Source: a virus (Duplodnaviria; Caudoviricetes). From it: a stretch of DNA of 64,000 bases. The stretch spans positions 1,047 to 65,046 of the IMG/VR virus record IMGVR_UViG_3300021502_000037. One strand, written 5' to 3'. The notes below the pieces were generated by a model, which worked only from the letters and a program-made list of their open reading frames with translations, did not search any database and had not been told where the DNA came from. Shown here in pieces: positions 39,034 to 64,000 of the stretch; position 1 is the stretch's first letter; each line of letters begins with the position of its first letter. Position numbers and translations under genes: made by a program.

Positions 39034-39201
39034 CTTGACAAAATTATTTATATGATTATATTTATATAAGGTTAATAACATTATAAATCACCGGCGCAGT
39101 TTTTGGCGTCCGGTGTATTTGATGGCTATTAAAAATAAAATTTGACAATATTAAAATAAGTATTATGTTAATATATAAAAGAAGTAAGCAAAGGTAGTTC
39201 A
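39031..39201 (+). repeat. Dual-promoter/hairpin cassette, copy 1 (copy 2 at 50028-50201)
   Basis: TTGACA at 39035 and 39142, GC-rich hairpin at 39085-39120, ends in agcaaaggtagttca. Confidence 0.85.
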
Positions 39202-41945: not shown

Positions 41946-42302
41946 ATGAGTATCAAATGTCCAAAATGTAATACAGACAGTCCAGTTCATTTTTTTCAAG
42001 AAAATTTAATTTGTGATCATTGTGGGGATGAAGTAGACATAGATTATTATATGTGTCCAAAATGTGGTTCCACTTTTAAAATGTCTGGTGGGGAAGTTTA
42101 TTCTTGTGTTCAGTTTTCTAAAGACGAATTTAAAAATTTATTTGGGGCAACAACAGAAGAAGTTTTAAAACAATATACCACAGATATGATGTCTGATAAT
42201 ATACATTCTTGTATAAAATGTGGCGGGTTAGCTTTTGAGGTTAGTGAGGGTTTATATAAATGTAATAGTTGCGGGTTTGAGATAGAAATAGAGGAAACAT
42301 AA
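41946..42302 (+). CDS. Multi-Zn-ribbon protein
   Basis: Five CxxC pairs. Confidence 0.65.
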
Positions 42303-48148: not shown

Positions 48149-48409
48149 ATTTAAATAATAAGAAAACCACTAAGTCTTTAGCTTAGTGGTTGAATTATTA
48201 CAAATTAAAACTTGACAAAAGCTTTTACACGTATTATATTATAATTAACATTAATCCTGCTATAAATGAAAACCAAGTTTATAGTAGGATTAATACATTT
48301 TTAAACATATTAACCGCAGGGACTGCGGGGTTAGCCTACCAAATTTAGATGGTAACAAACATCTAATTACTTAGGAAACCCGTAAATCTTTAGCTTAGGG
48401 GTAGTTCAT
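48149..48409 (+). mobile_element. Non-autonomous IS200/IS605-type element (261 bp; left end, promoter, omegaRNA-like 3' part, right end)
   Basis: Target TTAT at 48145-48148. Left end AAAA + CCACTAAG-TCTTTAG-CTTAGTGG hairpin. tnpB-end-like ACCGCAGGGACTGCGGGGTTAGCC. Right end GAAA + hairpin + TAGTTCAT. Confidence 0.8.
48212..48240 (+). promoter_or_regulatory. sigma70-like promoter inside the non-autonomous element
   Basis: TTGACA-N17-TATATT. Confidence 0.7.
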
Positions 48410-49979
48410 GGATGTAAAAATATTAGAAGAAGCAGGTTATAAACACGCATTATATGGTATATCTTTGAGTTATAATAAAGATATAGAAAATATGGAGAAA
48501 GTTTCTAAATCTTTGTGTAAATTAGATGGTGGCCATAATAAATTTTTAGAAAGTATTGTGGTATGGTTAGAAATAAATGCTGCTAGATATTGGTGGCAAG
48601 AATTTGATACATATAGAGTTGGTATCACCAAACAATCTGAGTGTTTTGATGATAAAACTGAAATCTTAACTTTAGATGGTTGGAAATATTTTAAAAATTT
48701 AAAAAATGAAGATTTATTTTGTACGATGAATATAAAAAATAGAAATATAGAATATCAGAAAGCAACTAATTATATAGAGAATGATTTTAATGGGGAGGTA
48801 CTTTCTATTAATGGTAAATCAATAGATTTAATTGTAACTAAAAATCATAATATGGTAATAAAATGTAGACGAAGTGAAAATTTGAGAATTATACCCGCTG
48901 ATAAATTTACACATTCACATGGTATTCCAAAGAAAGCAATATGGAAGGGTAAAGAGGTGTCAGAGTTTATACTACCTATGGTACAGAAAGAAACGAAATA
49001 CTCTACATTTTACCCAGAAAAAAAAATTAATATGGATTTATGGTTAAAATTTTTTGGTTTTTGGTTGGCAGAAGGATGTGTTTTTTGTAATCGTAATAAA
49101 AAAAATTACATATCATCCGCTTGTCAAGTTGAGGATAGTAAATATATACCTGAAATAGATGCAATTTTTGATGAATTACCCTTTAAGGTTTATAGATATG
49201 TTGAGAAGAGAAAAGATAAGAAATCAATAATTGTATGGAAAATTTCTAATAAACAGTTATATTTTTATTTATTAGAATATAAAGGAGCATTGAATAAATA
49301 TATAAATAAAGATTTACTTACTTTATCTAAAAGACAATTAAACATTCTTGAAAAATGGTTAATGGTTGGAGATGGTTGTGTTACTTTTAAGCACTATATT
49401 TACATTTCAATTAGTAAAAAATTAATTGATACTGTTCAAGAACTATGGTTAAAATTAGGGTATTCCTCTTCTATTAGAATTCATCGTGAAGCTCAAAATA
49501 ATTGTAAACGTGTTTATTCAATTGCAAGACATAGAACGTCTTATGCATATGCTTTGAAAAATAATATAAAAAAAGTAAATTATAAAGGTAAAATTTATTG
49601 TGTTGAGGTTCCTAATCATATTATTTTAGCTCGTAGAAATGGAAAGATAGTATGGACTGGTAATTCAACAATACATACACTTTTAAAAAGTAGATTAACT
49701 CAAAATAATTTTGAATCTGATATACCAGAAAAATTTTTAAATTATTTAAATACAATTATTACTAATTATCATAATAGTAAGAATAAAAATAAAGCTGAAT
49801 TTACAAAGGAAATAAAAAATATCCTTCCAGAAGGTTTTTTACAGCGAAGAATTGTGTGCACAAATTATAAAGTTTTAAAAAACATGATTAATCAAAGAAA
49901 GAATCATACTTTAGGTGGTTGGAAAATGTTTATAAATCATTTAAAAAATAATTTAGAACATTCAGATTTAATATTTTAA
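48408..49979 (+). CDS. thyX: ThyX-like flavin-dependent thymidylate synthase homologue containing an intein
   Basis: GGHNKFLE, RYWWQEFDTYR, SE|STIH, LPEGF.Q.R....NYK.L.N...QRK.H...W. Spliced product about 182 aa. Confidence 0.7.
   Translation: MDVKILEEAGYKHALYGISLSYNKDIENMEKVSKSLCKLDGGHNKFLESIVVWLEINAARYWWQEFDTYRVGITKQSECFDDKTEILTLDGWKYFKNLKNEDLFCTMNIKNRNIEYQKATNYIENDFNGEVLSINGKSIDLIVTKNHNMVIKCRRSENLRIIPADKFTHSHGIPKKAIWKGKEVSEFILPMVQKETKYSTFYPEKKINMDLWLKFFGFWLAEGCVFCNRNKKNYISSACQVEDSKYIPEIDAIFDELPFKVYRYVEKRKDKKSIIVWKISNKQLYFYLLEYKGALNKYINKDLLTLSKRQLNILEKWLMVGDGCVTFKHYIYISISKKLIDTVQELWLKLGYSSSIRIHREAQNNCKRVYSIARHRTSYAYALKNNIKKVNYKGKIYCVEVPNHIILARRNGKIVWTGNSTIHTLLKSRLTQNNFESDIPEKFLNYLNTIITNYHNSKNKNKAEFTKEIKNILPEGFLQRRIVCTNYKVLKNMINQRKNHTLGGWKMFINHLKNNLEHSDLIF
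48642..49664 (+). mobile_element. Intein with LAGLIDADG endonuclease (341 aa)
   Basis: Starts CFDD, ends WTGN|S. Blocks FFGFWLAEG and LMVGDG. Confidence 0.92.
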
Positions 49980-50025
49980 TTTAATTAGCGGTTGATTAAA
50001 TAACCAATCGCTAATTAAATTAAAA
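49974..50025. terminator. Long inverted repeat (21-bp stem, 10-nt loop) after thyX; terminator or processing hairpin
   Basis: ttttaatttaattagcggttg ... caatcgctaattaaattaaaa. Confidence 0.6.
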
Positions 50026-50027
50026 AA

Positions 50028-50201
50028 TAACTTGACAAAATTATTTAGATGATTATATTTATAGAAGGTTAATAACACCCTAAATCACCGGCGCCGGCTG
50101 TTTGGCGTCCGGTGTATTTGATTGTTATGAAAAATAAAACTTGACATTAATAAACTAAGCATTATATTATTAGATAAGGTTAATTAAGCAAAGGTAGTTC
50201 A
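50028..50201 (+). repeat. Dual-promoter/hairpin cassette, copy 2
   Basis: TTGACA at 50032 and 50141, hairpin at 50082-50119, continues into the tRNA-like RNA. Confidence 0.85.
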
Positions 50202-50261
50202 ATGTAGAATATTCGGTGACCAGCCGGAAGATGCAGGTGCAATTCCTGCCCTTTTGCTCCA
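50188..50261 (+). tRNA. Non-canonical tRNA-Gly(ACC)-like RNA
   Basis: Cloverleaf GCAAAGG/CTTTTGC, U73, encoded CCA. Anticodon arm TTCGG-TGACCAG-CCGGA; T arm GCAGG-TGCAATT-CCTGC. Confidence 0.7.
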
Positions 50262-50277
50262 AATAAAATAAAATAAA

Positions 50278-50964
50278 ATGATTAAACATAAAGATTTAAT
50301 GGGCAAAACATTCGGGAGATTAAAAGTTATTGGAAAGGAAGGCCCAGCAAAAAATAGAATAATGCAATGGTTATGTGAATGTTCGTGTGGCAATATATTA
50401 ATAGTAAGATCCAATCATCTTATACATGGGCATACAAGAAGTTGTGGATGTTTACAGAAAGAAAAAGTTACGGATGTTTTTATTCCAGATCTTATTGGAA
50501 AAAAATTTGGTAGACTTACAGTGCTGAGTTTAAGTAAAAAAAGAAAAAATAGAGCTGCAGTATGGAGATGTAAATGTGATTGTGGGAATTATACAGAAGT
50601 AATAACATCATGTCTTATAATTGGACATACAAAATCGTGTGGCTGTCTTCAAACAGAATCTTGTTCTGGTGATAATAATTTTAATTGGAGAGATGACACC
50701 TCAAAAGGAATTTATTGTCGAGACTGGACTAATGATTTAAAAGATTGTGTTAAAGAACGTGATGAATATAAATGTTTAAATCCTGATTGTTGGGGTAAAG
50801 ATAAGACATTATCTGTTCATCATATTAATTATAATAAAAAATCTTGTGGTCTAGAAAATCTTATTACAGTTTGCAGATCTTGTAATACTAGAGCAAATAC
50901 AGATAGAGAATGGCACGAGGCTTGGTATAAAGCAATTTTATATAGTAGATATGGTTATATTTAA
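50278..50964 (+). CDS. HNH homing endonuclease with FGRL.V...W.C.C.CG repeats
   Basis: Two DL.GK.FGRL.V...W.C.C.CG...SCGCLQ repeats plus the same HNH tail as 4262 and 44806. Confidence 0.85.
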   Translation: MIKHKDLMGKTFGRLKVIGKEGPAKNRIMQWLCECSCGNILIVRSNHLIHGHTRSCGCLQKEKVTDVFIPDLIGKKFGRLTVLSLSKKRKNRAAVWRCKCDCGNYTEVITSCLIIGHTKSCGCLQTESCSGDNNFNWRDDTSKGIYCRDWTNDLKDCVKERDEYKCLNPDCWGKDKTLSVHHINYNKKSCGLENLITVCRSCNTRANTDREWHEAWYKAILYSRYGYI

Positions 50965-50965
50965 C

Positions 50966-50993
50966 TTGACAATGTTAATATATGTATTATATT
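50966..50993 (+). promoter_or_regulatory. sigma70-like promoter for the second tRNA-like RNA
   Basis: TTGACA-N16-TATATT. Confidence 0.7.
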
Positions 50994-51010
50994 ATATGTA
51001 AGGTGAATGA

Positions 51011-51084
51011 GCAAAAGTAGTTTAATGTAAAATATCTGATGACCAATCAGAAGATGTTGGTTCAATTCCTGTCCTTTTGCTCCA
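51011..51084 (+). tRNA. Second tRNA-Gly(ACC)-like RNA (weaker T stem)
   Basis: GCAAAAG/CTTTTGC, U73, CCA. Anticodon arm TCTGA-TGACCAA-TCAGA, with compensatory changes relative to copy 1. Confidence 0.62.
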
Positions 51085-51120
51085 AATAATTAATTTTAAA
51101 TGTTAAGGAAAAATTATGAA

Positions 51121-51600
51121 CAGCTTTAGAGCCGCAATCCCAGAAAGGTCTTCGGGGTTAGGCTCTTGACAAATGAAATTTAATACTTATTATTAATTTA
51201 AAGGGAAAATTTATGATAACAAGAGAATTAAAATTACAATTACAATTAAAAACTAAGCAGAAAAACTTATGCAATTTAATAGGTATTTCTCAATTAAGAC
51301 AATTTATTTCCTACAAGAGTGACATACACGGTAGAAAATGTGTTTTAGTTGATTCAAAATATACCACCATGACTTGTTCAATTTGTGGAGTCAAAACTGG
51401 TCCTACAAGTTTAAACGGGCTTGCTGTAAGAAATTGGGAGTGTAGTGCTTGTGGAGCACAACATGACCGCGACATTAATGCGGCTAATGTAATTCTCAAT
51501 TTTGGGCTGGGATACAGCCTCGATAACGCTGCAACCCACGCCTGTAAAGGGCCGGGGATTTGTAAACTGGAATCGTCGGGCGGTGCCCGATGAGTATCAA
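51121..51600 (+). mobile_element. IS200/IS605-family element (480 bp) with internally deleted tnpB, inserted 3' of ATGAA
   Basis: Left end has CAAT at +15..18 before a hairpin. Right end GAAT + CGTCGGGC-GGT-GCCCGATG hairpin + AGTATCAA. No target duplication. Confidence 0.88.
51213..51593 (+). pseudogene. tnpB: Internally deleted TnpB
   Basis: N-terminal MITRELKL fused to the C-terminal YK...VD..YTT.TCSICG...W.CSACG..HDRDINAA. RuvC-I and RuvC-II are missing. Confidence 0.85.
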
Positions 51601-53773
51601 AATAAAAGGTATAAAATATGTGGGGCCACTAACAGATGGTTCTGGTTATGGAAAAGCTTGTAGAGAAAATATAAAAGCACTATTATCTGTTGGAGTAAAT
51701 TTAACATTATCTCCTATATCTTTTGAAACAATTAGACCAGATTTAGGTGGTGATGGTGAAATATTAAAAAAATTAATAAATAAATCTATAGATTATAATA
51801 TAGTTATTATTCATACAACACCTGAATTTTGGGAAAAATATAGAGAAGATGGTAAATTAAATTTGGGATACACTATATGGGAAACTACAAAATTACATCC
51901 GGCGTGGAAAGATTATATTAATAATAATGTTGAAAAAGTTTTGGTAGGTTGTGAATGGAATGTAGATGTCTTTAAAGAAAGCGGAATAACATTACCAATA
52001 GAAGTTATTCCACATCCAATAAATATACCAGATGAAAATGTAAAAGCATTCAATATAAATGGTGTTTCTGATGATACTTTTACATTCTACAGTATTTTTC
52101 AATGGTGTTACGATGATAAAACTAGGGTATTAACTGAAGACGGATTTAAATATTTTAAAGATTTAACATATGATGATAAGTTGGCTACATTAAATTTAAA
52201 TACGGAGGAATTAGAATATCATAAACCAGATAATCTTGTAAGTTTCGATAGAAAAGATAAAATGATATCTATACAAGGTAATTTATTTGACGTTTGTGTT
52301 AATCCAGAACATAAAATGGTTGTTAGAAATGCGGACAGTAGTGATTGGTTTTTAAAACCTTTAAAAGATATGTTAAGTAGTAATAAAAAAAATGAATTAA
52401 TTGTTAGCGATAAATATAGAGCAAAGAAAAATTGTAAATGGTTTGGAGAAGAATGTGAAAACTTTTATTTACCTAAATATAAGCATGGTAAAGATGAAAA
52501 ATTAGATGAATTTACCATAATTTTAATGGACGACATGTTGGAATTTATAGGTTGGTATATTTCAGAAGGTTCCACCTATAAGGGTGAAAGTGGTTATGTT
52601 ACTACAATTACACAATCTAAAAGTGCTGTATATATAAAAGAAATTACAGAATGTATAAAACGTATGGGATTTACTCCTTTTAAAAGGGATAAGGATATTA
52701 GATTTAATTCTAAAGACATGTATTATTTGTTAAAAAATTTAGGTACATCTCAATATAAATTTATTTTTAATTGGGCAAAAAAATTAAGTTCAAGACAAAT
52801 AATTATTCTATTAACATCATTATTTAAAGGCGATGGTAGTTTATATGAGAATGGGGATTGGGTAAAGTATACTACAACGTCCAAAAAATTAGCAGAAGAT
52901 GTTCAGGAATGTTTGTTAAAAGTAGGAATGTCTGGAGCAATTTCTATATCAGATCCAACAAAAAAGAAACCTGGAACAATAGATGGAAGAGAAATTAGAG
53001 GAAAATTACTACAATATACTGTATCTGTGAATAGAAAATTTAATGAGCCGAGTATGTATTATGCAAATGTAAAAGAAATTAATTATGATGGTAAAATATA
53101 TTGTGCGGAAATAAAAAATCATACTATGTTAGTTGAACGTAATGGTAAAATATTATTTTCTGGGAATACAGAAAGGAAAAATCCTGTAGCAGCTATAAAA
53201 GCCTATTGGTATGCTTTTCAAAATGATGAGAATGTAGCATTAGTATTAAAAACATATAGAAGTGACTATTCTGAACAAGAAAAAGAAGCAATTAGAAGGA
53301 CACTTAATAGGTTAAAAGATATTATGCCTATGGATACTTATCCAAAAATATATTTAATTCCAGATTTATTGACAGATAATGAAATAAATGGTTTACATAA
53401 ACGTGGGGATTGTTATTTAAGTACAGACCGTGGTGAAGGTTTTGGTTTAAGTGGTGCTGCTGCTGGTTCTTTTGGCAATCCAATAATGGTAACAGGTTTT
53501 GGCGGGGCTTTAGAATATGCTAAAGAAGATAATAGTTATTTAATTGATTATCAGTTAACACCGGTTTTCGGACAGCCATGGAGTCCGTGGTATAAGGGTA
53601 CTCAACTATGGGCGGAAACAAGTGTATTACACACATCTCAGTTATTAAGACATGTTTATGAAAATCAAGATGAAGCAAAACAAAAAGGTTTAAAGTTACA
53701 AAAATTTATAAAAGATAATTTATCTTATGAAACTATAGGTAATAAAATAATTAAAGAAATTGAGATGATATAG
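51590..53773 (+). CDS. GT4-family glycosyltransferase containing an intein
   Basis: SGYG, YTIWET, FQW|TERKN, RGEGFGL motifs. The start MSI is supplied by the IS right end. Confidence 0.88.
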   Translation: MSIKIKGIKYVGPLTDGSGYGKACRENIKALLSVGVNLTLSPISFETIRPDLGGDGEILKKLINKSIDYNIVIIHTTPEFWEKYREDGKLNLGYTIWETTKLHPAWKDYINNNVEKVLVGCEWNVDVFKESGITLPIEVIPHPINIPDENVKAFNINGVSDDTFTFYSIFQWCYDDKTRVLTEDGFKYFKDLTYDDKLATLNLNTEELEYHKPDNLVSFDRKDKMISIQGNLFDVCVNPEHKMVVRNADSSDWFLKPLKDMLSSNKKNELIVSDKYRAKKNCKWFGEECENFYLPKYKHGKDEKLDEFTIILMDDMLEFIGWYISEGSTYKGESGYVTTITQSKSAVYIKEITECIKRMGFTPFKRDKDIRFNSKDMYYLLKNLGTSQYKFIFNWAKKLSSRQIIILLTSLFKGDGSLYENGDWVKYTTTSKKLAEDVQECLLKVGMSGAISISDPTKKKPGTIDGREIRGKLLQYTVSVNRKFNEPSMYYANVKEINYDGKIYCAEIKNHTMLVERNGKILFSGNTERKNPVAAIKAYWYAFQNDENVALVLKTYRSDYSEQEKEAIRRTLNRLKDIMPMDTYPKIYLIPDLLTDNEINGLHKRGDCYLSTDRGEGFGLSGAAAGSFGNPIMVTGFGGALEYAKEDNSYLIDYQLTPVFGQPWSPWYKGTQLWAETSVLHTSQLLRHVYENQDEAKQKGLKLQKFIKDNLSYETIGNKIIKEIEMI
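52106..53167 (+). mobile_element. Intein with LAGLIDADG endonuclease (354 aa)
   Basis: Starts CYDD, ends FSGN|T. Blocks FIGWYISEG and LFKGDG. Confidence 0.92.
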
Positions 53774-53776
53774 CTT

Positions 53777-55126
53777 GTGTTTAAAAAATTAAATATTGAA
53801 GATATAAGAAAAGAATTTAAAGATAAAGGTAAAACTTTAATTACTGAAATTTATATTAATAGTAAGCAATCATTAGATTATATTTGTAAAAATGGACATA
53901 AACATCATATGAGAATTGACCATTTACGAAGTGGTGTTGATTGCCCTTATTGTAATGGTATGGCCAAAAAATCAATAGAAAAAATAAAACCGTATTTTTC
54001 TATAGAAGGGTATGAATTGCTTTCAGATGCATACGAAAATGCTTTTGGAGAATTAATTTGTAAATGTAAATTAGGTCATGTATTTAAAACTACTTGGCAT
54101 AGTTGGAGCTCTAGTAAAAACAGGTGTCCAATATGTAATAAAGGTGTTAGATTTGATTTTGATATAGTTAAAAAAGATATTGAAGATGGTGGTTATGAAT
54201 TAATAACTACTGAATATATTAATTCAGCACAAATTTTACATACTAAATGTCCCAAAAATCATGATTACTTTGTTAATTTTGGAAATTGGAAGCATAAAAA
54301 ATCTAGATGTCCGCGTTGTTCAGGTAATGGTGCTTCTTCTCCAGAATATATTATAAGGGAATTTTTAGATATAAATAATATTGATTATTTAATTAATGAT
54401 AAAAAAATTATTGCTCCATATGAATTAGATATAGTTATCCAAGATAAAAAGATTGCTATAGAATATTGTGGTTTATATTGGCATTCTGAAAGTAAAGGAA
54501 AATGTAATGATTATCATATACACAAATATAATTTATGTAAAGAAAAAGGTTATAGGCTAATAACAATTTTTGAAGATGAGTATATATTTAATTATGATGT
54601 AGTTAAATACAATCTTAATTCTATTTTGAAATTGAATAATATTAAAACAAAACAATTAACTAATTATAATATTATAGAAGTATCAAATATAGAAGCGAAA
54701 GTGTTTTTTAATAAAAATTCATTTATAGGTTGTTATGCAGATACAGATATAAAGTTAGGTATATTTATAAACGGTAATTTGGTGGGTGTTGGTTTATTTT
54801 CTTATCAAAACTCTGATAATTATTTATTAATTGGGTTTTGTTCTAACATGGTATATAGAAAAAGAGATATTTTATTTAAAATTATAGAGTATTTTAAAAT
54901 TAATTATAGGTGGAGAACTATTTCTGTAGAAGTTGATAAAAGATGGTATAGCGGTGACATATTTTACAGATTAGGATTTGATTTTATAAAAATTATTAAA
55001 CCTATTAGTTGGAATTTTAAATCGAAGAAAAGAGTAACTAATAAAATAAAAGATATAAATTATGATAAGATTTGGGATTGTGGTAAAAATAAATATATGT
55101 TAAAAAATAGAATGGAGTTAACATGA
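53777..55126 (+). CDS. Zn-ribbon-repeat/Vsr-like homing endonuclease with Hef-like C-terminus
   Basis: Three C..(G/N)H...CP.C repeats, ELDI...IAIEYCGLYWHS, IFEDE, VDKRW, IWDCG. Confidence 0.75.
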   Translation: MFKKLNIEDIRKEFKDKGKTLITEIYINSKQSLDYICKNGHKHHMRIDHLRSGVDCPYCNGMAKKSIEKIKPYFSIEGYELLSDAYENAFGELICKCKLGHVFKTTWHSWSSSKNRCPICNKGVRFDFDIVKKDIEDGGYELITTEYINSAQILHTKCPKNHDYFVNFGNWKHKKSRCPRCSGNGASSPEYIIREFLDINNIDYLINDKKIIAPYELDIVIQDKKIAIEYCGLYWHSESKGKCNDYHIHKYNLCKEKGYRLITIFEDEYIFNYDVVKYNLNSILKLNNIKTKQLTNYNIIEVSNIEAKVFFNKNSFIGCYADTDIKLGIFINGNLVGVGLFSYQNSDNYLLIGFCSNMVYRKRDILFKIIEYFKINYRWRTISVEVDKRWYSGDIFYRLGFDFIKIIKPISWNFKSKKRVTNKIKDINYDKIWDCGKNKYMLKNRMELT

Positions 55127-55629
55127 AAAAAACATTAAATGTAGGTTGTGGCGAAAGAATTTTTAAAGAATATCCTGAAGGATATCAATGTATAAATTAT
55201 GATGAACGTAATCTTGATTGTGTTGATGTTGTTGGTGATGTAAGAAAATTAGATTTTCCAAATGAAGAGTTCGATTATATAATTGCATTTGATATTATAG
55301 AACATTTTAAAATTTCTGAAACGGTTAATATTTTAACCGAATGGAAAAGAGTACTTAAAGTTGGCGGTACTATAGAGTTTAGGCTGCCAAATTTGGAGGA
55401 AATATGTAAAGATTATTTGAAAAGAAAAGATGAGAATCGTGTTGATGGGGCTCCTATGGCACAGTACTTCTCTTGGCTGCTTTATGGAGGACAAGATTAT
55501 TCAGGTAACTTTCATTATATTGGGTTTGACCGTCGCCTTATTGCTTATGAATGTAATAAAGTCGGTCTGCTTGAGGTTTCTTGGAAGGCAGAAGGGTATA
55601 ATATGATAGTTAAGTGTAGGAGACCATAA
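55123..55629 (+). CDS. SAM-dependent methyltransferase (type 11)
   Basis: LNVGCG, GDVRKLDF...FD, IIEH, RVLKVGG. Confidence 0.88.
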   Translation: MKKTLNVGCGERIFKEYPEGYQCINYDERNLDCVDVVGDVRKLDFPNEEFDYIIAFDIIEHFKISETVNILTEWKRVLKVGGTIEFRLPNLEEICKDYLKRKDENRVDGAPMAQYFSWLLYGGQDYSGNFHYIGFDRRLIAYECNKVGLLEVSWKAEGYNMIVKCRRP

Positions 55630-56285
55630 TGATTAAAGTAATTAGTGCTAATTTTGTTAAGAATGAAGCGCACTGTATAGAAAGGATGCTTGACGGTGTG
55701 CAGCCTTATGTTTCTGAAAGTTATGTGCTTATAGACAGAGAAACTACAGATAATACTAAAGAGATATGTGAGGCTCGTGGTTGTATAGTAGATTATTTTG
55801 ATTTTGAAAATTTTTCTAAGGTATGGAACCAGTTATTGTATTGGGTTAATGACAAAAGCGATTGGACAGTTTTTATCGCCCCCGATGAGACTATAGACAA
55901 AAATTTTGGTGAAATGTTAGTTCCTTTGGCTAATAAAATTTCTAGTACAGAGGTAGATGGTGTGTGGTTTTCTAGACGACACTGGCTGGATTTAGAGAAA
56001 AAAGAAGAATACACTGCACAAAATTGGTATCCTGATTGGCAACTTAGGTTTATACGGAATGATTTTCCTAGAGTGCACCTACAGAATTATGTGCATGAGT
56101 GGTCGGTTGGCGTAAGAAAATCTATTAGAATGCCTGGAAAAGATATACATCACTACAATATGTATTGGAAACCGAAAATTGACTACGATTTTGAAAAGAT
56201 GAATCAGCTGTATGAGCGTTTGACGCGACAACAAAACGAAGACGGTGGACATAACATATGGCCAAATGAGTTTAAGAAGGAGTAA
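55629..56285 (+). CDS. GT2-family glycosyltransferase
   Basis: VKNE..CI, D..TTD.T, PDE, YPDWQLR, VHE. Confidence 0.82.
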   Translation: MIKVISANFVKNEAHCIERMLDGVQPYVSESYVLIDRETTDNTKEICEARGCIVDYFDFENFSKVWNQLLYWVNDKSDWTVFIAPDETIDKNFGEMLVPLANKISSTEVDGVWFSRRHWLDLEKKEEYTAQNWYPDWQLRFIRNDFPRVHLQNYVHEWSVGVRKSIRMPGKDIHHYNMYWKPKIDYDFEKMNQLYERLTRQQNEDGGHNIWPNEFKKE

Positions 56286-56288
56286 TAT

Positions 56289-57293
56289 ATGAATTTAGTT
56301 TTAGTAGGGTTAGGTTATTGGGGTCCAAATTTACTACGGACATTTAATAGTTTGGGATCTGTGTACGCTGCAGTAGATAATAATATTGATAGACTCAATA
56401 AGTTTAGTAGTGACCCTGTTTATAATGGTATCAAATTTGAAGAAAGTTGGAATAAATTTCTTACAGATGATAAAGTCGATGGGTTTATTATAGCAACACC
56501 ACCTAATACTCATTATGAGATAGCTATGGCTGCTATATTAAGCAACAAACATATATTTATAGAGAAACCCATGGCTCTAGATCCAGAAGAAGCAGCTACT
56601 ATAGTAGAAGCCGCCGCTTTAAGGGATTTGGTAGTTATGGTAGGACATATATTTTTATACAGCCCAGAAATTATTAAACTTAAAGGAGTAATTACTTCCA
56701 AGGAGTTTGGTGATGTACAATATATTTACACACACCGTCTTAATTTGGGTAAAGTTCAGAGACCAGTTAATGTAGTAGATGATTTGGCTCCTCACGATAT
56801 AAGTATTTTAGATTACCTGTTGGGGGAGCAATGTACAGCTGCACAGGTTACAGCCGAGTCACATGTTATCGACACTGAGGATGTAGCTTTTGTTAATTTA
56901 AAGTATAATGATGTTCTTTGTCATTTACATCTAAGTTGGTTGGACCCGTTGAAGATTAGAAATATTGTTGTTGTCGGCACAAGGCAGATGGTGGTGTGTG
57001 ATTCTATGAATAAGACAATTAATATTTATAATACAGGTATAGATGTTGCTAAAGCTGAAAGTGAGATGAGTGAGTCATACTCAAATTATCTTATGACTTA
57101 CAGGTATGGTGATACTCTTATTCCACATATAGAAAATTTTGAGCCTATGAAAACCGAATGTAAAGACTTCATTGATTGTATAGAAAGCGGTAATGTGCCT
57201 ATATCCTCAGGTAGAGTTGGCCAATCAGTAGTTAATACTTTAAATATTATTCGTAAATCTTTGTGTAGTGGTGGTGGGTGGGTGTCCTTATGA
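56289..57293 (+). CDS. Gfo/Idh/MocA NAD-dependent oxidoreductase (sugar-nucleotide dehydrogenase-like)
   Basis: VGLGYWG, IATPPNTH, IEKP, VGH, DLAPHDI. Confidence 0.9.
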   Translation: MNLVLVGLGYWGPNLLRTFNSLGSVYAAVDNNIDRLNKFSSDPVYNGIKFEESWNKFLTDDKVDGFIIATPPNTHYEIAMAAILSNKHIFIEKPMALDPEEAATIVEAAALRDLVVMVGHIFLYSPEIIKLKGVITSKEFGDVQYIYTHRLNLGKVQRPVNVVDDLAPHDISILDYLLGEQCTAAQVTAESHVIDTEDVAFVNLKYNDVLCHLHLSWLDPLKIRNIVVVGTRQMVVCDSMNKTINIYNTGIDVAKAESEMSESYSNYLMTYRYGDTLIPHIENFEPMKTECKDFIDCIESGNVPISSGRVGQSVVNTLNIIRKSLCSGGGWVSL

Positions 57294-58117
57294 TCTCAGC
57301 ACACCTCATAACACACCAATGTGTTATTTTAGACTATTGTCTTGAAGCAACTATACGTTGTATGATGGATTTGTGTGATGACATTTATATAAATGATGGA
57401 CAGTCTGATGATGGTACACAAGATATACTTTATACTTTGCGGAACGAATATGGAAAAGACCGTGTAAAAATCTTTGTGCGTGATTGGCAACATAATAGGA
57501 GTATGTGGGCGAACGAAAAAAATTTTATACTTGACAAAATACCAAATGATACTTATATTTTAGCTATTGACGCTGACGAAGTTATACATGAAGATGAAAT
57601 GGGGTTAATTAAGACGGCGGTAAAATTAAAAACTAACTCAATAGCATTTGACGTTATTCATTTTTATGGAAGGCCTACACACCATATAGTAGGCCCAGCG
57701 TGGTATAAACAACATACAAGGTTGTGGCATCGTTCTACAGGGATTAGATTGGTGCACAGAGAACGCGGTTGTGCCGATGATGTTTTGTGGCCGGATGGTT
57801 ATCCAGCTCATATGGGAAGGTTTTTAAATTGTGGAGCAAAGCTTTATCATTACGGCAATTGTAGAGATCCAAAGGCTTTAGGGATGAAAGCTAAAAAAGC
57901 AGATGATCTTTACCAATATAGTACTGAGTATAGTGGTGGTAAATTGGCAAAACCAAGATCATTTACATATGCTTTTGACTCTACTGGAGCAATACCCTTC
58001 ACCGGTTCACAACCTAAGTATATAAAAGAGTGGTATGAGGCACATAAGAGCCAACAAACAAGTTATGATGTCAGAGATGGAAAGCAAAACAAACTTTGGT
58101 GTTTTGAGGAGAATTAA
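57278..58117 (+). CDS. GT2-family glycosyltransferase
   Basis: NDGQSDDGT, IDADE, YHYG. Confidence 0.85.
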   Translation: MGVLMISAHLITHQCVILDYCLEATIRCMMDLCDDIYINDGQSDDGTQDILYTLRNEYGKDRVKIFVRDWQHNRSMWANEKNFILDKIPNDTYILAIDADEVIHEDEMGLIKTAVKLKTNSIAFDVIHFYGRPTHHIVGPAWYKQHTRLWHRSTGIRLVHRERGCADDVLWPDGYPAHMGRFLNCGAKLYHYGNCRDPKALGMKAKKADDLYQYSTEYSGGKLAKPRSFTYAFDSTGAIPFTGSQPKYIKEWYEAHKSQQTSYDVRDGKQNKLWCFEEN

Positions 58118-58122
58118 ATGAA

Positions 58123-58187
58123 CAGTTTTAGAACCACAGTCACAAAATGGTGCTTAGTGTTGTTTGGGGGTACTCGATGAGTATCAA
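58123..58187 (+). mobile_element. 65-bp minimal derivative of the ATGAA-targeting IS200/IS605 element
   Basis: ATGAA|CAGTTTTAGAACCACAGT...GGTACTCGATGAGTATCAA matches both ends of the 51121-51600 element. Confidence 0.78.
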
Positions 58188-59070
58188 GTTGGCTGTAGGT
58201 ATACCGGTCTATAATGATAGTGTATTTATAGAACGTAGTGTCCAGAATTGTATAGATATGGGGTATGATTACGTTGTGTATTTAGACGACGGTAGCACAG
58301 ACGATTCGTTTGATAGGTTGGTAGAGCTTACTAGAGGCCATTCACATATAGACATATTGAGGAGAAAAGAGAACAGTGTGTCAAGCAATAGTGGTAACCG
58401 TTGGGAAATAGTTGCTGAACAGTGTAGGACAGTTAATCCTGATTGGATAATGACAAGAGCAACTGATGAGGTACTATCTCACAATGCAAAGGGTGTTTTA
58501 CGAGAAAAAATAGACGCCTTAAATTCCTTTGGTGTTAATATGGTAGTTTTTAACTATATACATCTATGGAGGTCTGAGTGGTGGTATAGAGTGGATAGTT
58601 TTTGGGGGGGCCACCACACAATATGTATGTGGAAGAATGATACTGGTTGGAAGTTTAAATTCGGTAGCGGAATACATTTAGGAGCACATCGTCCTAATAG
58701 TTTAGAGGTTAAGAATATTGTACACAATATTAATGGTTCTGACTCGAAAGATATTGTTGTGGTTCATTATGGCATGTCTTCACATGATTTGTTGGCACGT
58801 AAGTTGGATTATCAGATAAGTACTTCTCTTAAGATAGGAAAGAGAGCGGCTGGAATGTCTATAACTATCCCACATCCTTCTGGTTGGCAACATATTAATG
58901 GGTATAAAGCTGCTTACGAAGAAAATGTAAATTTAGAAAAAGTTAATCAGAAATGGTTTAGTGAACCTATTCCAGATGTCCCAGCCCCAGAAATAAAATC
59001 TCTTTATAAAGTTGTTAATAAACATAGCGTTCGTATTGCAGATGAATATGCAAAAATTTATGGGAGGTAA
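58177..59070 (+). CDS. GT2-family glycosyltransferase
   Basis: IPVYN, LDDGSTD, TDE, HYG. The start MSI comes from the element. Confidence 0.85.
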   Translation: MSIKLAVGIPVYNDSVFIERSVQNCIDMGYDYVVYLDDGSTDDSFDRLVELTRGHSHIDILRRKENSVSSNSGNRWEIVAEQCRTVNPDWIMTRATDEVLSHNAKGVLREKIDALNSFGVNMVVFNYIHLWRSEWWYRVDSFWGGHHTICMWKNDTGWKFKFGSGIHLGAHRPNSLEVKNIVHNINGSDSKDIVVVHYGMSSHDLLARKLDYQISTSLKIGKRAAGMSITIPHPSGWQHINGYKAAYEENVNLEKVNQKWFSEPIPDVPAPEIKSLYKVVNKHSVRIADEYAKIYGR

Positions 59071-59072
59071 AT

Positions 59073-59684
59073 ATCAAACCTTATTTTATACACCCAACAG
59101 CTGTTGTGGAAACTGTAAAGATAGGAGCAGGTACTTATATAGGGCCTTACACTTATATATCAGATAGGGTAACTATAGGTAAGAATTGTAAGATATACAA
59201 TGCCTCAATAGGCCTCTCTGGTGAACACCCAAACGCCCATGAAGATTGTGGTGGCGTGGTAGTTATTGGTAACAATGTAGAAATTCGTGAATATGTAACC
59301 ATTAATGCCCCGATATTTGGAGAAGTTACTAAAGTAGATGACGGTTGTTATCTTATGGCTAAGTCACATGTAGGGCATGATGCACATCTAAAAGAGCGTG
59401 TTGTGTTACATACAGGTTCTGTTATAGGTGGTCATTCTGTAATAGGAAAGTATTGCTATATGGGACTTAATTGTTCGACTCACCCTTACGCTGTTTTAGG
59501 TGACTATTGTATAGTAGGAGCCAACGGTGTATACAAAGGGGAATCCCCATCAGCTATAGTGTGGGCTGGTGTCCCTTGTAAACCATTGAAAACAAATGTT
59601 GTTGGTATTGATAGGCATGCCAAGAAGGAAGAAAAATTAGTACTTATTGAAGCTTGTCAAAGGTTTCTTGGGGGGAACATTTGA
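59073..59684 (+). CDS. Left-handed beta-helix acyltransferase (LpxA-like)
   Basis: Hexapeptide repeats, IGNNVEIREYVTI, HVGHD, WAGVP. The frame extends upstream through FIHPTAVV to an ATC located 5 nt after GGAGG. Confidence 0.82.
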   Translation: MKPYFIHPTAVVETVKIGAGTYIGPYTYISDRVTIGKNCKIYNASIGLSGEHPNAHEDCGGVVVIGNNVEIREYVTINAPIFGEVTKVDDGCYLMAKSHVGHDAHLKERVVLHTGSVIGGHSVIGKYCYMGLNCSTHPYAVLGDYCIVGANGVYKGESPSAIVWAGVPCKPLKTNVVGIDRHAKKEEKLVLIEACQRFLGGNI

Positions 59685-59685
59685 T

Positions 59686-60424
59686 ATGCAGCGATTAATA
59701 TTAACTGGCCCATCTATATGTGGAATAACTATTACAAGTAGTGTATTAACCACTCATGCTGATATATGTGTGACTAATGAGTTAAGAACTTATATGCATG
59801 CACCTAATAATGACCATGCTATATCTATTTATAATAATATAAAAATAAGAATCTTAATTTTTTCAATCTATCGGCGGATATTGATTTTGAATTTATAAAG
59901 TATTTGGATTTATTACCGTCAAAGAAAAGAATATTGAAATTAGAAGAGGTGATTTTTAATAATAGTTATAGTTTTTTTGGAGATAAGGGTATTTTTAATC
60001 CAGGAGCTAAGCTATTACACGAAAACAATTTAGATTTTATATTAATAATTATATATAGAGACCCTAGAGATGTGGTCAGTAGTGTGGTACGCCAATATCC
60101 AAGTTCTCATTTTGGTTACAATAGTAATGATCCTAATGTAATATATAGAATTTGGTCAGAATGGTTAACAGAGATGATAACTATAGGCAATGATTATGCT
60201 ACTAAAAGTTTAATTATTCGATTTGAAGACTATATAGAAAATCCTGGTCTTAATGGTACCAAGATAAATTCTTTTTAGGAATTTCAGGGATGGGTCTAAT
60301 AGAAAAACAGTTAATTAACTACAAAACCGCCCACAAAGTGTATTATAAACATCTTTGTGCTGATTGGCAAAAAACTTTTTCAAAAAAGGCTATAAGATTG
60401 ATGAAAGAATTACATTATACATAA
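59686..60424 (+). pseudogene. Frameshifted sulfotransferase
   Basis: Degenerate PAPS loop (LTGPSICGIT), L..H..I...NE, FGDK, YRDPRDVVSS, RFED...NP and terminal LMKEL.Y are spread over three frames. Confidence 0.7.
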
Positions 60425-60445
60425 TTTATACTGGAGGAATTTTCA

Positions 60446-61156
60446 ATGACTGAAAAAATAAAAGGTATCTGGATGCCCCCGCATTACAAGTTTTATCAAA
60501 AGCCAGATGAATATAGACAAGCTTTACGTGTTATAGTTGAGTCTCTAGACGAAGCCGACCTACCGTATTTTATTTACGGTGGATTGTTGTTGGGTTGGTG
60601 CAGAGATGCTGAGTTCATTTCTTGGGATAATGATATAGATATTGCAATAAGAGACCAAGATTTGGATAAGTTCGAAAGAGTAGTTGATATAATAAGAGAC
60701 AAGGGGTTTAAGATAAATCCTTATTACGACGGAAGAGATTCTATAGTGTCTTTTGAGCAAGGCCCATATAGATTAGGGCCTTTAGTGGATAAAGATAGAT
60801 GTAGAATTTATGTGGTTGATGGTGTTAAGGAAGTTATAATAAACAGCGGTCCGCGTTCTTGTTATTTCAAACCTTTTGATATTAAAGTGGAAATAAATGT
60901 ATTTTATAAAATAAATAATAGTTATTATTGGATTATAGAGGATCCTACTGAACCTAAAATAACTACATACGTTTTACCGGCAGCTAACATAGATAACCTA
61001 ACTACATTTTTATATGACAATAAGAATTATTCTATACCCAGCAATCCGGAACAAATTTTAGAATTACATTTTGGCAAAGGGTGGGCTATTCCAAAAAGCG
61101 ATGATTCTACTTGTAACCATATGTATGAAAATAAACAAGGAATAGTATTGAAATGA
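60446..61156 (+). CDS. LicD-family phosphotransferase
   Basis: GGLLLGW.R...FI.WD.DIDI and P.NPE..L...FG..W..P. Confidence 0.85.
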   Translation: MTEKIKGIWMPPHYKFYQKPDEYRQALRVIVESLDEADLPYFIYGGLLLGWCRDAEFISWDNDIDIAIRDQDLDKFERVVDIIRDKGFKINPYYDGRDSIVSFEQGPYRLGPLVDKDRCRIYVVDGVKEVIINSGPRSCYFKPFDIKVEINVFYKINNSYYWIIEDPTEPKITTYVLPAANIDNLTTFLYDNKNYSIPSNPEQILELHFGKGWAIPKSDDSTCNHMYENKQGIVLK

Positions 61157-61584
61157 CTAATATTGTAGGATATACAACTGGTGTGTTTGATTTATTTCAT
61201 GTGGGCCACTTAAACTTATTGAGAAATGCTAAGAGTATGTGTGATAAACTTGTGGTGGGGGTTACTGTGGATGAATTGACTTACTACAAAAATAAAAAAT
61301 CAGTTATACCTTTTGAAGAAAGATTAAAGATAGTGGAAGCTATTAGTTATGTAGATTTAGTAATACCTCAACGGGAAATTGATAAAGTAGCTGCATGGCA
61401 TAAACTAAAATATAATATTTTATTTGTTGGTGATGATTGGTATGGTACAAAGAAATGGCAGATTATGGAATTAAAACTTAAAGATTATGGGGTCAAGGTA
61501 GTATATTTTCCTTATACTAAAGGTACCTCTTCTACTCTAATAAATGAACTTTTAATTAAGCTAAGAGGTGATGATGGTGTTTAA
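61153..61584 (+). CDS. tagD: Glycerol-3-phosphate cytidylyltransferase-like
   Basis: GVFDLFHVGHLNLL, GDDW, YTKGTSST. Confidence 0.88.
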   Translation: MTNIVGYTTGVFDLFHVGHLNLLRNAKSMCDKLVVGVTVDELTYYKNKKSVIPFEERLKIVEAISYVDLVIPQREIDKVAAWHKLKYNILFVGDDWYGTKKWQIMELKLKDYGVKVVYFPYTKGTSSTLINELLIKLRGDDGV

Positions 61585-62596
61585 TTCATTTTGTTTAAAT
61601 TCATATTTAACATTCAGATATATCCCGAAATCTGGCATTGAGTGGTTGCCTGGAGTTAAGTCACTTGTTATTGATGATCAGACGGGCACTGTCCCAGTTA
61701 GTTCTTCTGAAGATATATATGCTTTTTTAGAGGAAGATATAAAAATTACAATCAAGAACCGTTCGCCGGGAATTCTTTTGAGTAGTGGTATAGATTCTGC
61801 TATATTAGCTTCTTTTCTACCGTCAGGCACTCCTGCTTATACTATTCGATTTGAAGCTGAAGGAGCTATTGACGAAAGTCAGATGGCCTCTGAATACGCA
61901 GGTTTATATAACTTAGATCATAAAGTTATAGATGTTAGGTGGGAAGATTACGAAAAGTATATGGACAATTTGATGCTGGTTAAAGGAGCCCCTCTGCATG
62001 CGGTTGAGGTTGGTTTGTTTAAAGCGTCTAGAGAGTTTACAAGTGCCGGAGTAGACTTAATTATAGTAGGTAACGGTGCCGATTCAACTTTTGGCGGTCT
62101 GGATAAACTTCTTTCCGTAGATTATACTTGCGCAGAGTTTATTGAAAGATATACATTTGTATCCCCCAACGATGTTCTTAAAGACGTAGTTGATTTATCT
62201 TATATATTTGAGGACTATATCACACACGAGAAGTTTAATACTGTAAGGTTTCTAAAAACCGTACACGGGTTAGGCATTGTTCAAGCGTTTGGTAATGCTT
62301 TGGGTTTAAATACGTATGAACCTTATGAAAAATTAATATTATCTGGGCCACTGGATATAAATAAAATACGATCTGGACAGAGTAAATATGTTCTTCGTGA
62401 GTTATTCAATCGAAGATTTCCTAAGTTTCAAATCCCAGAAAAGATAGCTTTTGCTAGGCCAATGGATTTGTGGTTAGAAGGTTGGACCGGCCCAGTTAGA
62501 GAAGAGTTTTTGGATAACATAGATATATCTAAGTTTACTGGAGATCAGAAATGGTTAATTTATTGTTTAGAGAGGTTTATGAATATTAATGAGTAA
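61568..62596 (+). CDS. Asparagine synthase C-terminal-domain-like ATP pyrophosphatase
   Basis: LLSSGIDS PP-loop, G.GAD..FGG, KYVLR..F. No glutaminase domain. Confidence 0.78.
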   Translation: MMMVFNSFCLNSYLTFRYIPKSGIEWLPGVKSLVIDDQTGTVPVSSSEDIYAFLEEDIKITIKNRSPGILLSSGIDSAILASFLPSGTPAYTIRFEAEGAIDESQMASEYAGLYNLDHKVIDVRWEDYEKYMDNLMLVKGAPLHAVEVGLFKASREFTSAGVDLIIVGNGADSTFGGLDKLLSVDYTCAEFIERYTFVSPNDVLKDVVDLSYIFEDYITHEKFNTVRFLKTVHGLGIVQAFGNALGLNTYEPYEKLILSGPLDINKIRSGQSKYVLRELFNRRFPKFQIPEKIAFARPMDLWLEGWTGPVREEFLDNIDISKFTGDQKWLIYCLERFMNINE

Positions 62597-63878
62597 TGTA
62601 TCTATCATAAAAACAAAAGATGAATATCCTAATTCTATATTAGAAGATAATACACACATCCATAAAGCAATGCTTAAAGGTTTTGAACTTTTAGGCTATG
62701 ATGTATCTAATCCTTTAGGACATATAGTAAAACCAGGAAACCGTGTATTTATAAAGCCTAATTTTGTTGTTGATGTTTATAGGGCTTCCTGTTCAATGGT
62801 TGGTGATATATATTCAGTTATAACACACCCTTCAGTTATCAAAGCCGTAGTTGATTTTGTAGCTATAGCTTTAAATGGTAAAGGGGAAATTATAGTCGGT
62901 GATTGCCCTTCCATTGACGCTGACTTTGAAAATCTTATGTGTGTAACTGGATTAGAGGCGTTAATGGGTAGGTATGATGTCCCTATAAAATTTTTTGATC
63001 TTCGTAATGAGTGGTGTGATGATCTTAAATATTATGGTTTTAAATCTAAAATGAAAAAACTTTCTGGCGATCCTGAAGGTTCTTCTATCTTAAATCTTGG
63101 TAAAAGATCTCTTTTTTATAGAGATAATCCTTTACTTTTTAGAGGTATATACACAAAGAGATGGGGTACTATAAAACACCACTTGTTTAATAAGCATGAA
63201 TATAGTGTTTCTAACACTATGTTAAATTCTGATGTGTTTATATCAATTCCAAAACTTAAAACTCACCGTAAAGTGGCAGCCACTTTAAATATAAAGGGGT
63301 TAGTTGGGATAAATACTGATAAGAACTTTTTAATACACTGGAAGATAGGATGCCCGTCGTTAGGTGGGGATGAGTGGTATAACCCAAGTGGTTTACGTGG
63401 ATACATGTCTTTAATTTTTAAACATATAATAAACGATTTAACACCGGAAAGTCTTTATTTTCTATTAAGAACCAAAACAAATTTAAGTATGCTCAATACA
63501 GAGGTATCGCCGTGTGGTCACAAACACAGAGGTTCTGGAGAAAAAAATGAAACTTGTTGGAAGATGGCGGCTGATTTATATAAAGTATTTATTGAGGATA
63601 GAAAATCTACCACAAAGTTTTTTTCAATAGTTGATGGTATCACTTCTGGTGAGGGTAATGGGCCGTTTTGTCCTACTAGCCGACAAGACGGCGTGTTGGT
63701 GATGGGAGAAGACTTGGTAGAGGTTGATTGTGCTTCTGTAAAGTTGATGGGATTTGCTCCAGCAGAGGTTGGATATTTGAAGTATTTCCTTAATGGTAAT
63801 TATGACGTAGATACTTCTTATTATCCTAAGAAAGTTGAACTTAATTTTAAAGCACCAGAAGGGTGGAAAAGTTTATGA
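62589..63878 (+). CDS. DUF362 family protein
   Basis: VFIKPN.V, THP, ISIPKLKTH, T..IK..VG, IVDGI..GEG.GP. Confidence 0.8.
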   Translation: MSNVSIIKTKDEYPNSILEDNTHIHKAMLKGFELLGYDVSNPLGHIVKPGNRVFIKPNFVVDVYRASCSMVGDIYSVITHPSVIKAVVDFVAIALNGKGEIIVGDCPSIDADFENLMCVTGLEALMGRYDVPIKFFDLRNEWCDDLKYYGFKSKMKKLSGDPEGSSILNLGKRSLFYRDNPLLFRGIYTKRWGTIKHHLFNKHEYSVSNTMLNSDVFISIPKLKTHRKVAATLNIKGLVGINTDKNFLIHWKIGCPSLGGDEWYNPSGLRGYMSLIFKHIINDLTPESLYFLLRTKTNLSMLNTEVSPCGHKHRGSGEKNETCWKMAADLYKVFIEDRKSTTKFFSIVDGITSGEGNGPFCPTSRQDGVLVMGEDLVEVDCASVKLMGFAPAEVGYLKYFLNGNYDVDTSYYPKKVELNFKAPEGWKSL

Positions 63879-63879
63879 A

Positions 63880-64000
63880 CAGCTTTAGAGCCGCAATCCC
63901 AGAAGGGTCTTCGGGGTTAGGCTCTTGACAAATGAAATTTAATGTTTATTATTAATTTAAAAGGAAAATTTATGATAACAAGAGAACTAAAATTACAATT
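63880..64000 (+). mobile_element. Third copy (left end) of the ATGAA-targeting IS200/IS605 element; tnpB begins at 63972 and runs off the window
   Basis: Near-identical to 51121-51241. Preceded by ATGAA whose TGA is the DUF362 stop codon. Confidence 0.88.

Follow-up and report, generated by a model that had tools for sequence, protein, structure and literature searches.

An IS200/IS605-type element of uncultured phages that follows ATGAA and carries an in-frame ATG in its right end

How can an insertion sequence (IS) occupy the start codon of a gene in a gene-dense phage genome and persist there? IS survival in such genomes is normally ascribed to intergenic sites, or to the carriage of an intron or intein. 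The question was raised by three related element copies in the window, i.e. the whole 64-kb stretch analysed here, which lies within the single 65,046-base virus record IMGVR_UViG_3300021502_000037 (CheckV completeness, 22%). All three copies directly followed an ATGAA in start position, and both visible right ends spelled a new ATG in frame with the interrupted gene. The feature is real and well supported; the transposon is of a known type, whereas the property is new. We regard it as quite probable that the copies represent a phage IS200/IS605 element with an ATGAA target and a start-supplying right end. A full-text literature search returned nothing on an IS whose end takes the place of a start codon; subscription journals and supplements fell outside its scope, and target-adjacent motif (TAM) tables of TnpB surveys published there could list ATGAA.

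The sequence ATGAACAGYTTTAGARCC occurred exactly three times in the window (51116, 58118 and 63875), against 0.15 occurrences expected from dinucleotide shuffles, none of 100 of which reached three. Element left ends lay at 51121, 58123 and 63880, each directly preceded by ATGAA; the targets, the copies and the visible host genes are all on the + strand. The target of copy 1 (51116..51120) consisted of the original start codon plus two nucleotides of the host gene, with a Shine-Dalgarno (SD)-like AAGGA 8 nt before the ATG. That of copy 2 (58118..58122) was the original start of a family-2 glycosyltransferase gene, with an SD-like GAGGAG 7 nt before the ATG. In the target of copy 3 (63875..63879), the ATG overlapped the TGA stop of the open reading frame (ORF) at 62589-63878 (DUF362). 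The right-end sequence CGATGAGTATCAA was found exactly twice, ending at 51600 and 58187. Removal of the elements in silico gave ATG AAA ATA AAA GGT for copy 1 and ATG AAG TTG GCT GTA for copy 2; with the elements retained, the host genes read MSIKIKG... and MSIKLAV..., respectively, both in frame.

Copy 1 (51121..51600) was a 480-nt non-autonomous derivative in which a left end with a promoter-like site was followed by a TnpB remnant ORF and then by the right end. Its left end displayed a guide tetranucleotide CAAT (51135-51138, positions +15 to +18) followed by a subterminal hairpin (51135..51157 including the guide; fold of -18.5 kcal/mol). A rightward sigma-70-like candidate promoter, TTGACA-16 nt-TATTAT (51166..51193), agreed with the consensus at 11 of 12 positions and is a consensus match only. 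The remnant (51213..51593, 126 aa) resulted from an in-frame deletion that joined about 20 N-terminal residues to the Zn-ribbon/RuvC-III end, and it matched the Pfam profile Cas12f1-like_TNB (E 1e-20). Its TGA overlapped the new ATG at 51590. The right end (51570..51600) comprised GAAT (51570-51573), a 9-bp hairpin (51573-51593), GTA and, at the terminus, the cleavage tetranucleotide TCAA (51597-51600). This hairpin (centroid -14.9 kcal/mol, z -3.5) held the supplied ATG (51590-51592) inside its 3' arm, and GGCGG stood 6 nt upstream of the ATG. A GGT loop was common to the left-end and right-end hairpins, the former being preceded by CAAT and the latter by GAAT. From the supplied ATG, the host gene extended over 51590..53773 (MSI-KIKGIKY...) and encoded a LAGLIDADG domain. 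The preliminary description had likened these ends to those of IS608, and the guides and the terminal TCAA were found as it had stated. GAAT presumably has the same letters as the right-end guide of IS608, and the pairs CAAT/TGAA and GAAT/TCAA fit what we take to be the IS608 pairing scheme (crossed pairing at positions 1 and 2, A:A at position 3, Watson-Crick at position 4).

Copy 2 (58123..58187) was a 65-nt relic reduced to the left-end and right-end termini, and it was also present in an independent run contig spanning 57860-58561. The old ATG (58118) opened a frame of 20 codons across the relic, closed by a TGA (58178-58180) overlapping the new ATG (58177), from which the glycosyltransferase gene ran to 59070 (58177..59070, MSI-KLAVGIPVYND...; assigned by Pfam and homologue starts). 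The public call of this gene, P0001 (58147-59070), begins at an ATG within the relic (MVLSVVWGYSMSIK...); gene callers would mis-start such genes, as P0001 does for 58177-59070. The left part of copy 3 (63880..64000), cut by the contig end, shared 95% identity with copy 1 across 133 nt. In run X9, a 480-nt contig matched 63817-64000, continued with 39 other letters and then resembled the interior of copy 1. The right end and host gene of copy 3 lie beyond the contig end, and statements on right ends in the window rest on copies 1 and 2. Within these bounds, what the preliminary description had claimed of the copies was confirmed: the start position of all three targets, the common finish of the two right ends, the frames with and without the element, and the position of the new ATG across the stop of the element itself.

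To which family do these copies belong? Relatives were gathered by exact-pattern scans with left-end and right-end motifs. The clearest full-length relative (L004, 1497 nt) had its left end after an ATGAA whose ATG overlapped the TGA of the upstream gene. It carried a 134-aa TnpA on the opposite strand and a 381-aa TnpB ending in ...ESLGGAR, the TGA of which overlapped an ATG; a 207-aa methyltransferase-like gene continued in frame from this ATG. TnpA ORFs of 132-134 aa, likewise on the opposite strand, were present in eight elements (seven of ~1519 nt plus L004). They were closest to the TnpA of ISHp608 (PDB 2a6m, E 4e-19) and displayed the H-x-H motif (DHVHF or DHIHF) and a C-terminal KKYIQNQ tyrosine. 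The Y1 (HUH) transposase typical of IS200/IS605 was encountered in the full-length relatives and not in the window; the accessory TnpB with RuvC and Zn ribbon was recognised in the window remnant as well as in the full-length relatives. Other family traits comprised subterminal imperfect palindromes in the absence of terminal inverted repeats, a guide tetranucleotide 5' of each palindrome, and a fixed insertion target with no target duplication, the flanks rejoining to intact frames. The right-end tetranucleotide was conserved, 47 of 48 junctions finishing in TCAA.

Full-length TnpBs (365-396 aa) matched solved TnpB and Cas12f structures and formed two clades with a mutual identity of 26-29%. 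Both clades ended in a common LES[SL]GGAR (eight residues, seven invariant) because these residues are encoded by the common right end. Clade A retained the RuvC residues D, E and D. The clade nearest to the window remnant (L020, L084) displayed IYITNDNL or IYITDDNL in place of the VLEDL of clade A. Element sizes were ~1519 nt for tnpA plus tnpB, 1167-1244 nt for tnpB-only forms and 991-1146 nt for deletion forms, while miniatures measured 471-480, 320, 235 and 65 nt. The last ~230 nt were conserved between copy 1 and L082, which is compatible with a guide-RNA scaffold. An Rfam scan of 49900-52000 (E up to 1) returned no omega-RNA and no intron family, only two tRNA-like hits. IStrons carry a fused group I intron ribozyme; no Rfam intron was encountered in that interval, and a group I intron would not fit into copies of 65 or 235 nt. 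By these features the element is assigned to IS200/IS605, nearest to IS608 and apart from the IStrons, in agreement with the initial assignment. One left-end pattern match (L002), lacking both ATGAA and a hairpin, was rejected as a chance occurrence. An identical 1244-nt tnpB-only element occurred at L056 7989-9232 (minus strand orientation) and L087 1805-3048, with near-identical upstream flanks and differing downstream flanks. This pattern could reflect recombination at the element or one-sided co-conversion.

Is the ATG a constant part of the right end? A search blind to it was performed in viral, metagenome and genome collections with a 19-nt right-end scaffold stopping before the ATG. Among 120 hit rows, 68 represented 48 distinct junctions continuing as GATG..YAYCAW. 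The remaining 52 rows were rejected as chance matches, mostly in GC-rich contigs and with upstream 60-nt stretches at most 47% identical to any family member. All 48 junctions had the ATG at a distance of 11 nt from the end of the element, both codon and distance being invariant, and the following codon varied (AGT, AGC, AAC, and TGC in one duplicate). A more distant element (L122), found through its TnpA (70% identity) and having a different scaffold, kept the ATGAA target and an end reading GATGAGTATCAA; in the 5' arm of its stem, replacement of G by A converted the G-T pair facing the T of the ATG into A-T. The conservation of ATG and frame presumed in the preliminary description was borne out by these ends. 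Apart from one hit in the genome collections, the family was seen in low-GC (29-47%) phage-like contigs. This single hit (L105, counted among the 48) was a 4.4-kb contig of a Bacteroidetes metagenome-assembled genome and ended in GATGAGCACCAT.

Such constancy could also arise as a by-product, the ATG being merely the foot of a transposase-binding hairpin and ATGAA the context in which genes of AT-rich genomes most often start. The in-frame ATG would then have no role, and the invaded genes, many of which encode glycan enzymes, would be dispensable accessory genes that can be lost or can restart at another position. The position of the ATG within the stem and its likely constrained spacing to TCAA favor this explanation. 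The distribution of insertion sites and the state of the downstream genes bear on it directly.

In 30 of the 48 junctions, the frame of the supplied ATG was that of an ORF that either had 44 codons or more or stayed open up to the contig end; a long ORF lay in another frame in six and no long ORF followed in 12. Only 138 of 555 other same-strand ATGAA sites passed a 50-codon cut (Fisher p 2e-7). Of 20 complete insertions, 11 occupied the start codon that came first in a long ORF, as did 40 of the 555 other sites (p 8e-8). Among the 24 distinct left flanks listed, 21 read ATGAA, two TTGAA and one ATGAG. Because A preceded only 39% of all TGAA sites in these contigs and ATGAA was nevertheless present at eight of nine non-start insertions, the machinery appears to read the pentanucleotide. 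When sites were classed by our own crude ORF rules (ORFs of at least 80 codons, and no gene finder), 17 ATGAA insertions were distributed over gene starts (seven, against 32 other ATGAA sites), sequences outside genes (seven, against 45) and gene interiors (three, against 478). Interiors were depleted about 35-fold relative to starts (p 8e-7), which would not be expected if gene loss were harmless and hence speaks against a by-product.

The preliminary description had further stated that the element lands in start codons. This holds insofar as starts were the site of the 11 complete insertions and most junctions were in frame. A special search for starts beyond ATGAA was unsupported, starts and intergenic sites being occupied in about the same proportion as they occur (7:7 versus 32:45, p 0.57), and this lack of excess is what a by-product would also produce. 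The parity between starts and intergenic sites, together with the depleted interiors, therefore fits an ATGAA target with survival wherever the insertion is harmless. The simplest reading is insertion at any ATGAA followed by loss of gene-breaking copies, the copies at starts being harmless ones. This argues for a working replacement start, since otherwise starts would be cleared of the element just as interiors are.

Does the supplied ATG stand at the true N-terminus of the host proteins? Ten of 20 downstream proteins had a Pfam hit, and in nine of them the match opened within profile positions 1-5 and protein residues 4-9 (Epimerase twice, UDPG_MGDP_dh_N, CTP_transf_like, DnaJ, Glycos_transf_2, Sulfotransfer_3, RF-1 and NT5C). 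In the Epimerase and DnaJ examples, the match started at residue 5 and profile position 1; in the tenth protein, the L004 methyltransferase, it began later. Fourteen of 27 homologues of the copy 2 glycosyltransferase began with MK/MR-I-A-V/A, and most others with M-x-I-A or M-x-I-V at the same position. Two uninterrupted homologues of the copy 1 host gene (L019, L033) began with MEIRGIKY where the window read MSI-KIKGIKY. Seven of the ten proteins with a Pfam hit were sugar-modifying enzymes, which are often non-essential, as a by-product would have it. Against this, the downstream ORFs were intact up to 727 codons with complete Pfam domains, and the invaded genes included those for DnaJ-like and RF-1-domain proteins.

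The organisation of the elements upstream of the ATG was equally consistent. An ORF ended at the ATG-overlapping TGA in all 19 complete hairpin-bearing elements; in the 13 with a full-length tnpB, this ORF was the 365-396-aa TnpB. Each of four independent miniature types (65, 235, 320 and 471-480 nt) kept an ORF running into that TGA, from its own start or from the old host ATG, a feature for which a by-product offers no reason. Three of these types were in-frame tnpB deletions, an outcome with a chance of about 1 in 27 and suggestive only. At one junction (L031), the supplied ATG opened a four-codon ORF (ATG AGC ATC AAA TGA), the TGA of which overlapped the ATG opening an ORF of 68 codons in a different frame; this overlap could be a second-order relay or chance.

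These features suggest the following course of events. Integration of single-stranded DNA would occur directly 3' of ATGAA, with a right end always reading ...GCCCG-ATG-AGY-ATC-AA. The new ATG would fall in the old frame of genes starting with M-K or M-N because the 5 nt of ATGAA and the 11 nt of ATGAGYATCAA are both 2 mod 3, and the cost to the protein would be a Ser-Ile added after Met and nothing else. Ribosomes finishing tnpB, or the ORF left over from it, would probably open the hairpin and restart at the ATG. Such termination-reinitiation is the likeliest mode of restart because ORFs end on the ATG-overlapping TGA in all complete elements and miniatures. The left-end promoter-like site may add transcription. 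Insertions at start codons would then be tolerated like intergenic ones and those within genes purged, leading to a pile-up on starts in gene-dense phage genomes.

A trace of a lost copy was probably left elsewhere in the window. The gene at 41946-42302, which has its own SD, begins with ATGAGTATCAA (41946..41956, + strand; MSIK-CPKC), in which the final 11 nt of the element right end recur without change. Its homologues began with MECP (four of five) or MNCP (one of five), all two residues shorter than MSIK-CP. A deletion between the target ATGA and the right-end ATGA would leave exactly the 41946 sequence, making this a probable 6-nt scar. Outside canonical ends, ATGAGYATCAA occurred at two sites across 612 kb of loci, about as often as by chance according to our rough base-composition estimate, and only that at 41946 was at a gene start. 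If a scar, it attests tolerance of the MSI prefix and speaks in favor of a start-supplying right end; its persistence in an otherwise conserved gene would be hard to reconcile with a by-product. P0012, a glycosyltransferase homologue known from the protein only and starting with MSLKIAVG, may represent a second scar. All points considered, a by-product without function appears rather unlikely.

Several points nevertheless weigh against a right end selected to supply a start. All 48 junctions came from a single 19-nt scaffold and represent fairly close relatives. Conservation of the ATG alone is no proof of selection for translation because the ATG belongs to the right-end hairpin and the transposase probably fixes its spacing to TCAA. 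In 18 of the 48 junctions the ATG was not in frame with a long ORF, three of the 17 classified insertions lay inside ORFs, the site classes depend on the crude rules given above, and no start preference over intergenic ATGAA was detected. Contigs of four runs (X8-X11), which drop rare variants, contained no empty allele joining the copy 1 or copy 2 flanks on 50000-64000, and a look-up of RNA runs covering 57000-59500 gave no entry. Finally, the TnpB clade nearest to the window remnant displays no obvious RuvC-II glutamate, and neither a Y1_Tnp match nor an intact tnpB was found across the 65-kb record. All three window copies are non-autonomous for that reason, and any guide RNA they produce would need TnpB in trans since they contain no intact TnpB or TnpA.

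What could TnpB contribute where it is intact? According to 10.1101/2023.03.14.532601 and the review PMC13565253, homing and retention by TnpB are established, and in the former the TAM equals the transposon target motif. As this equality is established TnpB biology, intact copies would aim their guides at the opening codons of genes still free of the element. The guide RNA would derive from the initial ~16-20 nt of the host gene, ATGAA would serve as TAM, and uninvaded alleles in co-infecting phages would be cut. Homing might even replace transposition as the explanation, start-codon copies being over-represented through lateral spread between co-infecting phages at conserved starts. Several metagenome contigs did share the same junction (e.g. 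the L049/L079 and L044/L068 flanks), and the common element and upstream flank of L056 and L087, which differ downstream, fit such copying. Many different genes were, however, hit once each, which requires transposition, and miniature copies devoid of TnpB were common. Homing is compatible with a start-supplying element rather than exclusive of it, and as a substitute for transposition it seems very unlikely.

A third explanation holds that the copies are domesticated expression cassettes, in which promoter, leader ORF and coupled start regulate downstream glycan genes for the phage. It would account for the promoter-like site of the left end, for the leader ORFs kept by miniature copies and for the presence of copies 1 to 3 within one glycan-gene island (45-64 kb of the window). 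The same elements were, however, found at unrelated genes and intergenic sites of other phages, and their ends were typical of mobile copies; domestication is scarcely credible. A farther-reaching proposal is that IS605-type ends have evolved translational transparency in phages, through an ATGAA target (a start or an ATGA stop/start junction), a hairpin acting as coupled restart, a start-codon TAM, homing and MSI scars. As a joint proposition covering all these components, it is put forward tentatively, at slightly less than even probability.

Among known systems, IS608 (ISHp608, Helicobacter pylori) came closest. As laid out in PMC3201880, it displays subterminal hairpins, a guide tetranucleotide 5' of each hairpin foot and a right end TCAA. 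Shared with it were the Y1 HUH transposase (2a6m being the best match), hairpins with guides, insertion on the 3' side of a short, specific sequence that is not duplicated, and the TCAA end. It differs in its target, TTAC instead of ATGAA, and in the distance of TCAA from the hairpin foot, 10 nt instead of 3-4 nt as folded here. The in-frame ATG overlapped by the tnpB stop and the uncultured phage hosts likewise set the present elements apart, and the literature search revealed no published property of IS608 touching start codons. With ISDra2 and ISGst the elements had in common a TnpB with Zn ribbon and RuvC motifs, a tnpB 3' end overlapping the right end, where a guide-RNA scaffold is expected, and a predicted TAM equal to the target motif. 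They differed in that this predicted TAM is ATGAA, guides would be first gene codons, the tnpB ORF reaches to 8 nt before the element end, and Rfam recorded no omega-RNA match. IStrons (IS605/IS607 plus group I intron) similarly allow an IS605-type element to sit in a gene without destroying it; here, harmlessness would come from translation restart instead of RNA splicing, and only at ATGAA start codons. Copies 1 to 3 and the 235- and 320-nt forms, with ends and no transposase, resembled palindrome-associated transposable elements (PATEs) and other IS200/IS605 miniatures akin to miniature inverted-repeat transposable elements (MITEs). Such copies must be mobilised in trans. Unlike PATEs and MITEs, every miniature type here kept an ORF ending on the supplied ATG.

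If correct, a start-supplying right end would add a third survival route, in which the element end replaces the start codon it has split, and would account for the persistence of TnpB elements in phages with almost no spare DNA. It ties transposon end structure to translation initiation. TnpB would be a natural RNA-guided nuclease with a start codon as TAM and first codons as guides, homing into the gene 5' ends of co-infecting phages; a TnpB with an ATGAA TAM is predicted, of possible interest as a tool for targeting gene starts. MSIK and MSIN N-termini of phage proteomes would record past invasions as Ser-Ile scars, and those two residues longer than their homologues would be a simple marker for tracing them.

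The window had a G+C content of ~30% and its large ORFs were nearly all on the + strand. Besides the glycan-enzyme island, it encoded phage-type replication genes and HNH and LAGLIDADG endonuclease domains. A blastn search of 50,697 GenBank phage records with a full element (L009) and copy 1 gave zero matches, and tblastn with TnpB gave nothing above 29% identity. The best identity of the DnaB-like helicase to cultured phages was at most 33%. Judged by these comparisons, no cultured phage appears close to the window or to the element family.

Other repeats and mobile sequences were encountered around copy 1. Two tRNA-like sequences (50190-50254 and 51011-51080), 84% identical to each other, matched the Rfam tRNA family with 35 bits (gathering score 29) and were not called by ARAGORN; one lies 36 nt upstream of the copy 1 target. 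A cassette of ~150 nt, duplicated at 39025-39178 and 50022-50177 (86-92% identical), contained TTGACA promoter-like boxes and a GC-rich segment and was located ahead of genes. ORFs 48408-49979 and 51590-53773 both encoded a LAGLIDADG_3 domain and shared a 96-nt stretch (48641-48736 and 52105-52200, 72% identical). Both ORFs probably carry inteins, and therefore the copy 1 host gene may hold two kinds of selfish element. An unrelated miniature element (48149-48409) had two similar hairpin ends (48149-48190 and 48361-48402) and finished with ...GTTCAT right before the G of the ATG of ORF 48408-49979; judging from the sequence at this junction, it seems to restore a start codon that had been split (TCAT|G).

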